From sequence record NC_025824.1: a DNA stretch of 6,408 nt; one strand, 5' to 3'. The notes beneath the pieces are model-generated. The model saw nothing but the letters and a program-made list of their open reading frames with translations. It searched no databases and was not told the origin of the DNA. Positions 843-4,243 of this stretch are shown here, piece after piece (the stretch's first letter is position 1; each line of letters opens with the position of its first letter). The DNA comes from Escherichia phage fd. A program made the position numbers and the translations under genes.

Positions 843-1106
843 ATGATTAAAGTTGAAATTAAACCGTCTCAAGCGCAATTTACTACCCGTTCTGGTGTTT
901 CTCGTCAGGGCAAGCCTTATTCACTGAATGAGCAGCTTTGTTACGTTGATTTGGGTAATGAATATCCGGTGCTTGTCAAGATTACTCTCGACGAAGGTCA
1001 GCCAGCGTATGCGCCTGGTCTGTACACCGTGCATCTGTCCTCGTTCAAAGTTGGTCAGTTCGGTTCTCTTATGATTGACCGTCTGCGCCTCGTTCCGGCT
1101 AAGTAA
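843..1106 (+). CDS. V: gpV, single-stranded DNA-binding protein (87 aa)
   Basis: ORF 843..1106, product MIKVEIKPSQAQFTTRSGVSRQGKPYSLNEQLCYVDLGNEY..., recognised as Ff gene V protein. Shine-Dalgarno-like AAGGT at 830..834. Confidence 0.97.
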   Translation: MIKVEIKPSQAQFTTRSGVSRQGKPYSLNEQLCYVDLGNEYPVLVKITLDEGQPAYAPGLYTVHLSSFKVGQFGSLMIDRLRLVPAK

Positions 1107-1107
1107 C

Positions 1108-1209
1108 ATGGAGCAGGTCGCGGATTTCGACACAATTTATCAGGCGATGATACAAATCTCCGTTGTACTTTGTTTCGCGCTTGGTATAATCGCTGGGGGT
1201 CAAAGATGA
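1108..1209 (+). CDS. VII: gpVII, minor coat protein at the virion tip that emerges first (33 aa)
   Basis: ATG at 1108, one base after the gene V stop (TAA 1104..1106). Translates to MEQVADFDTIYQAMIQISVVLCFALGIIAGGQR, stop TGA at 1207..1209. Too short for the ORF track; recognised as Ff gene VII. Confidence 0.9.
   Translation: MEQVADFDTIYQAMIQISVVLCFALGIIAGGQR
1163..1190 (+). promoter_or_regulatory. Candidate sigma70 promoter inside gene VII, driving gene IX/VIII transcription
   Basis: TTGTAC at 1163..1168, 16-nt spacer, perfect TATAAT at 1185..1190. Ff phages are known to have a strong promoter upstream of gene VIII; assigning it to these bases is inference from the motif. Confidence 0.5.
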
Positions 1210-1304
1210 GTGTTTTAGTGTATTCTTTCGCCTCTTTCGTTTTAGGTTGGTGCCTTCGTAGTGGCATTACGTATTTTACCCGTTTAATGGAAACTTCCTC
1301 ATGA
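1206..1304 (+). CDS. IX: gpIX, minor coat protein at the same virion tip as gpVII (32 aa)
   Basis: ATG at 1206..1208 overlaps the gene VII stop as ATGA. Translates to MSVLVYSFASFVLGWCLRSGITYFTRLMETSS, stop TGA at 1302..1304. Too short for the ORF track; recognised as Ff gene IX. Confidence 0.9.
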   Translation: MSVLVYSFASFVLGWCLRSGITYFTRLMETSS

Positions 1305-1522
1305 AAAAGTCTTTAGTCCTCAAAGCCTCCGTAGCCGTTGCTACCCTCGTTCCGATGCTGTCTTTCGCTGCTGAGGGTGACGATCCCGCAAAAGCGGCCT
1401 TTGACTCCCTGCAAGCCTCAGCGACCGAATATATCGGTTATGCGTGGGCGATGGTTGTTGTCATTGTCGGCGCAACTATCGGTATCAAGCTGTTTAAGAA
1501 ATTCACCTCGAAAGCAAGCTGA
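1301..1522 (+). CDS. VIII: gpVIII, major coat protein precursor (73 aa procoat; 23-aa signal peptide, 50-aa mature protein)
   Basis: ATG at 1301 overlaps the gene IX stop as ATGA. Product MKKSLVLKASVAVATLVPMLSFA|AEGDDPAKAAFDSLQASATEYIGYAWAMVVVIVGATIGIKLFKKFTSKAS. Mature residue 12 is Asp, as in fd/f1 (M13 has Asn). Confidence 0.98.
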   Translation: MKKSLVLKASVAVATLVPMLSFAAEGDDPAKAAFDSLQASATEYIGYAWAMVVVIVGATIGIKLFKKFTSKAS

Positions 1523-1537
1523 TAAACCGATACAATT

Positions 1538-1565
1538 AAAGGCTCCTTTTGGAGCCTTTTTTTTT
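1538..1565 (+). terminator. Rho-independent terminator after gene VIII
   Basis: Stem aaaggctcc (1538..1546), loop tttt, stem ggagccttt (1551..1559), followed by a T-run through 1565. Sits between gene VIII and gene III, matching the known Ff central terminator. Confidence 0.85.
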
Positions 1566-1578
1566 GGAGATTTTCAAC

Positions 1579-2853
1579 GTGAAAAAATTATTATTCGCAA
1601 TTCCTTTAGTTGTTCCTTTCTATTCTCACTCCGCTGAAACTGTTGAAAGTTGTTTAGCAAAACCTCATACAGAAAATTCATTTACTAACGTCTGGAAAGA
1701 CGACAAAACTTTAGATCGTTACGCTAACTATGAGGGCTGTCTGTGGAATGCTACAGGCGTTGTGGTTTGTACTGGTGACGAAACTCAGTGTTACGGTACA
1801 TGGGTTCCTATTGGGCTTGCTATCCCTGAAAATGAGGGTGGTGGCTCTGAGGGTGGCGGTTCTGAGGGTGGCGGTTCTGAGGGTGGCGGTACTAAACCTC
1901 CTGAGTACGGTGATACACCTATTCCGGGCTATACTTATATCAACCCTCTCGACGGCACTTATCCGCCTGGTACTGAGCAAAACCCCGCTAATCCTAATCC
2001 TTCTCTTGAGGAGTCTCAGCCTCTTAATACTTTCATGTTTCAGAATAATAGGTTCCGAAATAGGCAGGGTGCATTAACTGTTTATACGGGCACTGTTACT
2101 CAAGGCACTGACCCCGTTAAAACTTATTACCAGTACACTCCTGTATCATCAAAAGCCATGTATGACGCTTACTGGAACGGTAAATTCAGAGACTGCGCTT
2201 TCCATTCTGGCTTTAATGAGGATCCATTCGTTTGTGAATATCAAGGCCAATCGTCTGACCTGCCTCAACCTCCTGTCAATGCTGGCGGCGGCTCTGGTGG
2301 TGGTTCTGGTGGCGGCTCTGAGGGTGGCGGCTCTGAGGGTGGCGGTTCTGAGGGTGGCGGCTCTGAGGGTGGCGGTTCCGGTGGCGGCTCCGGTTCCGGT
2401 GATTTTGATTATGAAAAAATGGCAAACGCTAATAAGGGGGCTATGACCGAAAATGCCGATGAAAACGCGCTACAGTCTGACGCTAAAGGCAAACTTGATT
2501 CTGTCGCTACTGATTACGGTGCTGCTATCGATGGTTTCATTGGTGACGTTTCCGGCCTTGCTAATGGTAATGGTGCTACTGGTGATTTTGCTGGCTCTAA
2601 TTCCCAAATGGCTCAAGTCGGTGACGGTGATAATTCACCTTTAATGAATAATTTCCGTCAATATTTACCTTCTTTGCCTCAGTCGGTTGAATGTCGCCCT
2701 TATGTCTTTGGCGCTGGTAAACCATATGAATTTTCTATTGATTGTGACAAAATAAACTTATTCCGTGGTGTCTTTGCGTTTCTTTTATATGTTGCCACCT
2801 TTATGTATGTATTTTCGACGTTTGCTAACATACTGCGTAATAAGGAGTCTTAA
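1579..2853 (+). CDS. III: gpIII, minor coat / receptor-binding adsorption protein (424 aa including an 18-aa signal peptide); N1, N2 and C-terminal domains separated by glycine-rich linkers
   Basis: GTG start at 1579 just after the terminator, with GGAG at 1566..1569. Product [18 protein letters not shown]|[42 protein letters not shown]..., stop TAA at 2851..2853. The ORF track's 1549 start is a TTG inside the terminator hairpin. No foreign insert after the signal peptide. Confidence 0.96.
1834..1890 (+). repeat. Tandem 15-bp repeat encoding the (EGGGS)n first glycine-rich linker of gpIII
   Basis: gagggtggtggctct / gagggtggcggttct / gagggtggcggttct / gagggtggcggt read directly; encodes [19 protein letters not shown]. 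Confidence 0.95.
2284..2400 (+). repeat. Tandem 12-15-bp repeat encoding the GGGS/EGGGS second glycine-rich linker of gpIII
   Basis: About nine consecutive units (ggcggcggctct, ggtggtggttct, gagggtggcggctct ...) encoding [39 protein letters not shown]. Confidence 0.95.
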
Positions 2854-2855
2854 TC

Positions 2856-3194
2856 ATGCCAGTTCTTTTGGGTATTCCGTTATTATTGCGTTTCCTCGGT
2901 TTCCTTCTGGTAACTTTGTTCGGCTATCTGCTTACTTTCCTTAAAAAGGGCTTCGGTAAGATAGCTATTGCTATTTCATTGTTTCTTGCTCTTATTATTG
3001 GGCTTAACTCAATTCTTGTGGGTTATCTCTCTGATATTAGCGCACAATTACCCTCTGATTTTGTTCAGGGCGTTCAGTTAATTCTCCCGTCTAATGCGCT
3101 TCCCTGTTTTTATGTTATTCTCTCTGTAAAGGCTGCTATTTTCATTTTTGACGTTAAACAAAAAATCGTTTCTTATTTGGATTGGGATAAATAA
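2856..3194 (+). CDS. VI: gpVI, minor coat protein at the gpIII end of the virion (112 aa)
   Basis: ATG at 2856, two bases after the gene III stop; AAGGAG at 2842..2847. Hydrophobic product MPVLLGIPLLLRFLGFLLVTLFGYLL..., stop TAA at 3192..3194. Recognised as Ff gene VI. Confidence 0.96.
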   Translation: MPVLLGIPLLLRFLGFLLVTLFGYLLTFLKKGFGKIAIAISLFLALIIGLNSILVGYLSDISAQLPSDFVQGVQLILPSNALPCFYVILSVKAAIFIFDVKQKIVSYLDWDK

Positions 3195-3196
3195 AT

Positions 3197-4243
3197 ATGG
3201 CTGTTTATTTTGTAACTGGCAAATTAGGCTCTGGAAAGACGCTCGTTAGCGTTGGTAAGATTCAGGATAAAATTGTAGCTGGGTGCAAAATAGCAACTAA
3301 TCTTGATTTAAGGCTTCAAAACCTCCCGCAAGTCGGGAGGTTCGCTAAAACGCCTCGCGTTCTTAGAATACCGGATAAGCCTTCTATTTCTGATTTGCTT
3401 GCTATTGGTCGTGGTAATGATTCCTACGACGAAAATAAAAACGGTTTGCTTGTTCTTGATGAATGCGGTACTTGGTTTAATACCCGTTCATGGAATGACA
3501 AGGAAAGACAGCCGATTATTGATTGGTTTCTTCATGCTCGTAAATTGGGATGGGATATTATTTTTCTTGTTCAGGATTTATCTATTGTTGATAAACAGGC
3601 GCGTTCTGCATTAGCTGAACACGTTGTTTATTGTCGCCGTCTGGACAGAATTACTTTACCCTTTGTCGGCACTTTATATTCTCTTGTTACTGGCTCAAAA
3701 ATGCCTCTGCCTAAATTACATGTTGGTGTTGTTAAATATGGTGATTCTCAATTAAGCCCTACTGTTGAGCGTTGGCTTTATACTGGTAAGAATTTATATA
3801 ACGCATATGACACTAAACAGGCTTTTTCCAGTAATTATGATTCAGGTGTTTATTCATATTTAACCCCTTATTTATCACACGGTCGGTATTTCAAACCATT
3901 AAATTTAGGTCAGAAGATGAAATTAACTAAAATATATTTGAAAAAGTTTTCTCGCGTTCTTTGTCTTGCGATAGGATTTGCATCAGCATTTACATATAGT
4001 TATATAACCCAACCTAAGCCGGAGGTTAAAAAGGTAGTCTCTCAGACCTATGATTTTGATAAATTCACTATTGACTCTTCTCAGCGTCTTAATCTAAGCT
4101 ATCGCTATGTTTTCAAGGATTCTAAGGGAAAATTAATTAATAGCGACGATTTACAGAAGCAAGGTTATTCCATCACATATATTGATTTATGTACTGTTTC
4201 AATTAAAAAAGGTAATTCAAATGAAATTGTTAAATGTAATTAA
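3197..4243 (+). CDS. I: gpI, inner-membrane assembly ATPase (348 aa) with an N-terminal Walker A motif
   Basis: ORF 3197..4243. P-loop GKLGSGKT at residues 8-15 (about 3218..3241). Recognised as Ff gene I. Confidence 0.96.
   Translation: MAVYFVTGKLGSGKTLVSVGKIQDKIVAGCKIATNLDLRLQNLPQVGRFAKTPRVLRIPDKPSISDLLAIGRGNDSYDENKNGLLVLDECGTWFNTRSWNDKERQPIIDWFLHARKLGWDIIFLVQDLSIVDKQARSALAEHVVYCRRLDRITLPFVGTLYSLVTGSKMPLPKLHVGVVKYGDSQLSPTVERWLYTGKNLYNAYDTKQAFSSNYDSGVYSYLTPYLSHGRYFKPLNLGQKMKLTKIYLKKFSRVLCLAIGFASAFTYSYITQPKPEVKKVVSQTYDFDKFTIDSSQRLNLSYRYVFKDSKGKLINSDDLQKQGYSITYIDLCTVSIKKGNSNEIVKCN
3917..4243 (+). CDS. XI: gpXI, in-frame internal restart within gene I (C-terminal 108 aa of gpI); assembly protein
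   Basis: ATG at 3917..3919 is in the gene I frame and shares its stop. Product begins MKLTKIYLKKFSRVLCLAIGFASAF... and is 108 aa, the known size of gpXI. Confidence 0.8.
   Translation: MKLTKIYLKKFSRVLCLAIGFASAFTYSYITQPKPEVKKVVSQTYDFDKFTIDSSQRLNLSYRYVFKDSKGKLINSDDLQKQGYSITYIDLCTVSIKKGNSNEIVKCN

Follow-up and report, generated by a model that had tools for sequence, protein, structure and literature searches.

The window analyzed here, 6408 bases in length, is the complete genome of an Ff filamentous phage of the fd type in its conventional numbering, and its positions 1108-1209 and 1206-1304 are the textbook Ff minor coat protein genes VII and IX. The explanation as a whole, which combines an fd-type Ff genome carrying these two genes with a three-step translational relay and an independently started gene VIII, is in our judgment very probably correct. 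In the first step, gene VII, practically devoid of a ribosome-binding site of its own, would be served by a fraction of the ribosomes terminating on gene V, through the termination-reinitiation published for f1. In the second step, also published for f1, ribosomes translating gene VII would open an RNA hairpin, re-predicted here, leading to initiation of gene IX at the AUG of the AUGA. Finally, gene VIII would start independently and at a high rate from an open, unstructured region, its overlap with gene IX reflecting genome compaction. Genes V and VIII are very highly expressed neighbours on the same mRNAs, and such a relay would hold the output of genes VII and IX low.

The two genes, their products, the place of these products in the virion and their coupled translation were all known before, the low expression that results from coupling to upstream genes having been established decades ago, and nothing in this analysis is new for biology. 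An ATGA overlap alone is no proof of functional coupling between two genes. Among three adjacent tight junctions in this region, one couples without any overlap, a second couples via an RNA hairpin, and the third overlaps but shows no apparent dependence.

Identity of the genome and of genes VII and IX

Whole-genome comparison matched the window to the Ff phages with 97.0-99.2% identity and 100% coverage. The nearest records, Escherichia phage Copypasta and FfIris (99.2% over 100% of the length), are environmental isolates, Copypasta originating from Swiss river water; f1 (97.1-97.2%) and M13 (97.0%) each matched over 100% of the length as well. Membership of the Ff group is apparent from the gene order II-X-V-VII-IX-VIII-III-VI-I-XI-IV, with all 11 reading frames intact at their expected positions. 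In the Ff records, the + strand carries all annotated genes. The coordinates of genes V (843..1106), VII (1108..1209), IX (1206..1304) and VIII (1301..1522) are those of M13 (NC_003287) and f1 (V00606), and the DNA from 1108 to 1304 is the same as in both references at 197 of 197 bases. Compared with genes VII and IX of the Ff phages (f1, fd and M13; genus Inovirus), the window matches in coordinates, lengths, junctions, DNA and proteins, and no difference was found within 1108-1304.

Upstream of the two genes, on the + strand, gene V encodes the ssDNA-binding protein of 87 aa (Pfam PF02303, 1.3e-42), and downstream, on the same strand, gene VIII encodes the major coat protein precursor of 73 aa (Pfam PF19199, 8.3e-28), both in line with the annotation of M13 and f1. 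Gene VIII is the final gene of its operon. An intrinsic terminator at 1538..1567 (+), made of a nine-pair stem followed by a T run, closes the II-X-V-VII-IX-VIII transcription unit.

The window is 6408 nt long, compared to 6407 nt for M13, owing to one extra base in the spacer between genes VI and I (3192-3199). The VI/I junction reads TAA-AT-ATG in the window and TAA-T-ATG in M13; the spacing of another tight junction thus differs among Ff strains. In the window, genes I, XI and IV are numbered one position higher (+1) than in M13. A further difference lies in codon 35 of pVIII (window position 1403), which specifies Asp in the window and Asn in M13. Asp was found at this codon in the window and in 10 of the 11 other Ff genomes compared, and Asn in M13 alone. 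The residue is consistent with a coat of the fd/f1 type rather than of the M13 type.

The first-pass annotation had claimed that genes VII and IX, of 33 and 32 aa, were truly present in this DNA. To verify this, both frames were translated and compared with the known proteins. Gene VII (1108..1209, +) gave MEQVADFDTIYQAMIQISVVLCFALGIIAGGQR up to its stop codon (33 aa), and gene IX (1206..1304, +) gave MSVLVYSFASFVLGWCLRSGITYFTRLMETSS up to its stop codon (32 aa), with no internal stop in either. Both products are identical to pVII and pIX as annotated in M13 and f1. Indeed, over their entire lengths, pVII is 100% identical to the chain named 'Tail virion protein G7P' and pIX to the chain named 'G9P' in PDB entries 8B3P, 8IXL and 8JWW, and the confirmation from virions proposed in that annotation is thereby already available in the literature. 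Moreover, pVII matched Pfam family PF19978 (Inovirus_G7P_2) with 76.4 bits over residues 1-33 of 33 (cutoff 27) and the profile phrog_7781 at 4.6e-20, while pIX matched the profile phrog_10143 at 3e-26 over residues 1-32 of 32. No Pfam-A or NCBIfam model matched pIX, and no NCBIfam model matched pVII. Model-based naming would therefore leave essential proteins nameless even where they are called. In RefSeq record NC_025823, all ten f1 proteins are named 'hypothetical protein'.

Both pVII and pIX are small hydrophobic proteins, and they cap the end of the particle that emerges first from the cell. In the round tip of the f1/M13 virion, five copies of pVII form a central plug with five copies of pIX around it, and Arg33 of pVII faces the DNA (PMC10175506; PMC10480500). 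Judged by its sequence identity to the G7P chain, pVII of the window is identified as this virion tip protein.

Genes VII and IX are both absent from a default ORF list with a cutoff of 60 aa, and the first-pass annotation was right to ascribe their absence to length. Over their DNA, this list gives two antisense ORFs of 70 aa instead, at 921..1133 and 1055..1267. The chance ORFs above the default cutoff comprise these two (- strand) and a third of 99 aa at 1338-1637 (+). With a cutoff of 20 aa, genes VII and IX appear only as 44-aa forms stretched to upstream TTG codons, and several chance ORFs of similar size are listed nearby. Because chance readily produces open frames of such length, ORF length is no evidence for genes VII and IX. 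When the sequence was shuffled 1000 times with its dinucleotides preserved, a chain of two ATGA junctions between ORFs of 30 or more codons arose in 4 cases. Single ATGA junctions do arise by chance: one at 2443-2446, within gene III, likewise links two out-of-frame ORFs, each 30 codons or longer.

Mechanical ORF lists do offer the antisense and TTG-extended alternatives, and one might accordingly hold that the VII and IX frames are fortuitous and that the true coding sequence is the antisense 70-aa ORF at 1055..1267 or the 44-aa forms. We regard this as practically negligible, given that both short frames exactly match proteins seen in virion structures. In addition, the 5 sites that vary in 1108-1304 across 12 Ff genomes, including the three in gene IX, are all synonymous third positions in the VII and IX frames, whereas three of the four natural variants inside the antisense ORF 1055..1267 are nonsynonymous in that ORF (P to L, Q to L and K to N). 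Annotated genes are exclusively on the + strand. The N-termini of homologues from IKe-like phages align with the ATG start for pIX and close to the ATG for pVII. The antisense ORFs and the TTG-extended forms were rejected on the basis of virion identity and of the pattern of synonymous variation. Identity to G7P and G9P, the matches to family models and the synonymous-only variation are decisive for genes VII and IX.

It had also been claimed that automated callers miss essential small genes. This is true of naive length cutoffs, but both genes are annotated in every one of the 31 public Ff records of the phage collection, recent environmental isolates included. The region can nevertheless be used for calibration: with a 60-aa cutoff, two essential genes go unlisted and spurious antisense ORFs are shown in their place, and the rule of extending each ORF to its first start leads to wrong, TTG-extended N-termini.

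Coupling of gene VII to gene V and of gene IX to gene VII

The junction between genes V and VII (1104..1110, +) reads TAA-C-ATG: the gene V stop occupies 1104-1106, C1107 is the only spacer base and the gene VII ATG begins at 1108, in agreement with the earlier description of a stop one base before the start. All 11 gene starts of the genome were characterized by their pairing with the 3' end of 16S rRNA (anti-SD pairing) and by the energy cost of opening positions -20 to +12. Gene VII displayed the weakest anti-SD pairing of the 11 starts (-1.7 kcal/mol) together with the highest opening energy (19.9 kcal/mol). For gene V, the corresponding values were -4.0 and 5.9 kcal/mol, making its start the second most open of the 11. 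Going by these two sequence proxies, the gene VII start would have no independent ribosome-binding activity. The gene V stop lies within a few nucleotides of it, as termination-reinitiation requires.

Published experiments agree with this picture. According to the account of Ivey-Hoyle and Steege given in PMC7697814, the gene VII site is inactive alone and, once coupled, attains about 10% of the activity of gene V; the same account describes the site as inherently defective because it contains no ribosome-binding information. In an M13 V/VII reporter, the activity stated in PMC2268962 was twofold lower at a stop-start distance of 4 nt and at background level at 40 nt. No site varies between 1067 and 1122 across the 12 Ff genomes, and the published results on V/VII coupling in f1 and M13 therefore hold for the sequence of the window. 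The dependence of gene VII on ribosomes finishing gene V is published for f1, and the V/VII junction is a standard model for re-initiation.

Genes VII and IX overlap by an ATGA at 1206..1209 (+), which contains the gene IX start and the gene VII stop. This overlap and the one between genes IX and VIII at 1301..1304, both reported in the first-pass annotation, are present in the sequence. The Shine-Dalgarno (SD) sequence of gene IX, GGGGGU at 1195..1200 (+), lies in Gly-Gly codons shortly before gene VII ends. Its anti-SD pairing (-9.1 kcal/mol) is the second strongest of the 11 starts, and the opening energy of the gene IX start (13.3 kcal/mol) makes it the third most structured.

An RNA hairpin wholly inside gene VII was predicted at 1138..1186 (+), ending 8 nt upstream of the gene IX SD. 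Its folding energy is -15.9 kcal/mol (z = -3.3), with 1 of 200 shuffled sequences folding equally well. Larger contexts of 91, 126 and 281 nt folded no better than shuffles (z of -0.3 to -0.7), and the isolated hairpin was the only significant structure among the folds tested. It is invariant in the 12 Ff genomes and so offers no covariation within the Ff group. An Rfam search of positions 900-1600, evaluated by E-value, gave no match in 1108-1304 and only sub-threshold chance matches on the terminator following gene VIII. The hairpin leaves the gene IX SD unpaired; a predicted outer helix (1123-1128/1196-1201) would pair it.

A 2025 review (PMC12548453) summarizes the work of Blumer et al. 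(1987), in which a long hairpin was predicted to end a short distance before gene IX; coupling of gene IX was kept when the gene VII stop was moved to +62 nt and lost when it was moved to +89 nt. From the spacing convention of the review, we infer that these stops map to 1141-1143 and 1114-1116, respectively. These positions are codons 12 and 3 of gene VII, both CAG and both one step from amber. The first falls within the 5' arm of the hairpin (pairs 1141-1183, 1142-1182 and 1143-1181), whereas the second is 22 nt upstream of it. So far as the review details them, the behaviors published for +62 and +89 fit the mapped positions. The mutants, as presented there, indicate that translation of gene VII must melt the hairpin for gene IX, and the +89 result suggests that opening of the outer helix (1123-1128/1196-1201) is not enough. 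Coupling by unfolding calls for a stable structure at the gene IX ribosome-binding site within gene VII, and the 1138-1186 hairpin provides one. It is therefore likely, as far as the predicted fold is a guide, that this hairpin is an inhibitory element melted by ribosomes translating gene VII.

The tight junctions might alternatively do nothing more than save space in a 6.4-kb genome, with free 30S subunits initiating genes VII and IX independently. Such a view would accommodate the other tight junctions present (III/VI, +2; VI/I, +2; I/IV, -23), the ease with which the -4 motif arises in evolution (PMC12548453) and the strong SD of gene IX. It is at odds with the gene VII start, which of all starts in the genome has the weakest SD pairing and is the most structured, and with the published reporters, for which PMC7697814 and PMC2268962 relate no independent gene VII activity and a dependence on the stop-start distance. 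The loss of gene IX coupling caused by a gene VII stop at +89, in the review's account (PMC12548453), would also not be expected, and a loss of pVII and pIX synthesis upon blocking of upstream translation is described as already reported. Moreover, the pattern of a gene VII without SD and a gene IX with SD is kept at about 30% protein identity. Independent initiation of both genes is thus very improbable, and the relay from gene V through gene VII to gene IX is the reading we retain.

The IX/VIII junction and comparison with other inoviruses

The second ATGA, at 1301..1304 (+), contains the gene VIII start and the gene IX stop. The anti-SD pairing of the gene VIII start is -3.3 kcal/mol and its opening energy of 5.7 kcal/mol is the lowest, making it the most open of the 11 starts. 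The 51 nt around it fold with -1.8 kcal/mol, and 192 of 200 shuffled sequences folded at least as well.

The three junctions V/VII, VII/IX and IX/VIII could be imagined to re-initiate alike, in which case pVIII would depend on ribosomes passing through gene IX. All three are tight (+1, -4 and -4), no coupled spacing is commoner in prokaryotes than NTGA (PMC12548453), and the weak SD of gene VIII points in the same direction. However, re-initiation passes on a fraction of the ribosomes (about 10% from V to VII in the account of that junction cited above), yet pVIII far exceeds pIX in each virion: a 500-angstrom mini-phage virion contains five pIX and 105 pVIII (PMC10480500). The most open start region of all 11 genes, that of gene VIII, likewise speaks against dependence on gene IX, as does the absence of a conserved tight junction. 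Indeed, the IX/VIII ATGA was found in Ff only, and in IKe, PEar1, L018 and L019 its place is taken by a +10 nt spacer that includes an SD.

Early amber codons in gene IX did not lower particle titres either. In the DeltaPhage helper, two amber codons directly follow codon 2 of gene IX, and phagemid titres in a non-suppressor host were 'similar and very high' (PMC3439877). The helper genome is the sole source of pVIII in such a rescue. From these titres we infer that the gene IX ambers leave the supply of pVIII intact; a modest coupling of gene VIII to gene IX would still be compatible with them. Uniform re-initiation at all three junctions is thus improbable. Given the open gene VIII start, the spacer in IKe-like phages, the excess of pVIII over pIX and the DeltaPhage titres, the IX/VIII overlap does not appear to be needed for pVIII, and this ATGA is probably a matter of compaction, not of obligatory coupling.

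The first-pass annotation had interpreted the whole ATGA arrangement as translational coupling. This stands for the V to VII and VII to IX steps, where coupling is documented, but not for IX to VIII, where it is undocumented and the evidence is against it. At V/VII, the junction for which coupling is best proven, the genes do not overlap. As V/VII and VII/IX couple by different mechanisms, the ATGA motif is not their common cause. Generic prokaryotic NTGA (-4) coupling has the same spacing motif, and upstream translation sets the downstream yield in it as it does here (PMC12548453); the motif, however, does not define the mechanism in this region.

The order V-VII-IX-VIII is shared by the IKe-like phages, which comprise Lineavirus IKe, the Erwinia PEar phages and two IMG/VR loci (L018 and L019). 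Their VII and IX proteins are of similar size (29-33 aa) and only about 30% identical to those of Ff; the C-terminal Arg of pVII is invariant between the two groups. As in Ff, gene VII of the IKe-like phages starts at most 4 nt from the gene V stop and has no SD, and genes VII and IX overlap by 4 nt with an SD inside gene VII (IKe, PEar1, L018 and L019). This SD is CUGGAG at the equivalent place, with a pairing energy of -5.9 to -6.2 kcal/mol, compared to -9.1 kcal/mol for GGGGGU in Ff. Two junctions differ. In IKe, V/VII is an ATGA overlap, whereas Ff has its one-base spacer; conversely, genes IX and VIII of the IKe-like phages are 10 nt apart, with an AAGGA SD belonging to gene VIII, whereas those of Ff overlap by ATGA. 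In L019, the start codon of the gene IX homologue is TTG, and its overlap with the stop of gene VII reads TTGA instead of ATGA (1861-1864), the SD being unchanged (-5.9 kcal/mol).

A consensus fold of four gene VII sequences from IKe-like phages gave a long, imperfect hairpin, with the GGAG of the gene IX SD paired at its base. Among its 18 pairs, one is compensatory (UA to AU), and the covariation term is -0.56 kcal/mol for 4 sequences only. As a prediction, this consensus hairpin is suggestive only as support for the structure.

Distant relatives of gene V, in Xanthomonas-type and other metagenomic inoviruses (30 of the 33 IMG/VR loci), were filtered for a V-VII-IX-VIII chain. An Ff-like chain was found in none of these 30 loci, and L043 alone passed the filter. 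In L043 (1820-2162), three small hydrophobic ORFs of 39, 34-36 and 40 aa follow gene V, with overlaps of -1/-7 and -4 and an SD on each ORF. The distant metagenomic inoviruses carry no information on Ff either way. In four metagenomic inoviruses, the gene V protein is 35-44% identical and the interval between genes V and VIII is unlike that of Ff (L008, 1171-1513; L009, 1167-1470; L010, 1141-1414; L007, 1173-1482). In Dulem virus 52, D_HF5_61 and toucan80, the same interval holds a single ORF of 73-88 aa with one C-terminal hydrophobic segment, and in Dulem virus 57 it holds a 34-aa ORF overlapping gene V by ATGA, followed by a 66-aa ORF. These ORFs may be fusions or replacements of genes VII and IX, or miscalls of them. 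Some metagenomic inovirus records have different or doubtful gene calls between V and VIII, which may reflect either different biology or annotation error.

Possible additional constraint and a possible promoter within genes VII and IX

Variation at synonymous sites is about threefold lower in genes VII and IX than in genes V and VIII on either side. Among degenerate third positions, 5 of 60 in VII and IX are variable across the 12 Ff genomes, against 37 of 154 in V and VIII (Fisher p = 0.012). With all sites included, 5 of 197 positions vary in 1108-1304, against 44 of 486 in 843-1106 and 1301-1522 (p = 0.002). These p-values are indicative only, given that the sequences share a phylogeny and that a single genome, FfLavender, contributes most of the changes. 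Going by sequence comparison, the low synonymous variation is consistent with an extra constraint on genes VII and IX at the RNA or DNA level.

Positions 1182-1190, which belong to the 3' arm of the hairpin in gene VII, read TGGTATAAT, a perfect extended -10 element. The only -35 element that accompanies it is a weak one, TTGTAC at 1163-1168. A consensus promoter scan called no promoter inside gene VII or gene IX, this element failing the -35 criterion, and a literature search on internal promoters returned nothing relevant. Older Ff maps presumably place a promoter near map unit 0.18-0.19. We propose only tentatively, and think it rather unlikely, that genes VII and IX are under added selection at the nucleic acid level in which TGGTATAAT would serve both as hairpin arm and as promoter. 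If the element were active, transcripts would start near 1197, within or adjoining the gene IX SD and downstream of the hairpin. The same bases would then act in two ways: as RNA in long transcripts, they would keep gene IX coupled to gene VII, and as DNA they would launch short, hairpin-free transcripts, mainly for gene VIII. Such a short-transcript route would explain the escape of gene VIII from the relay.

A literature search found neither ribosome profiling of M13 nor RNase E processing of filamentous phage mRNA. Inside gene IX, positions 1248-1269 form a terminator-like stem-loop, with 7 pairs and a loop of 8, followed by a T-rich stretch. This stem-loop could be due to chance, or it could be an element of mRNA processing or stability.
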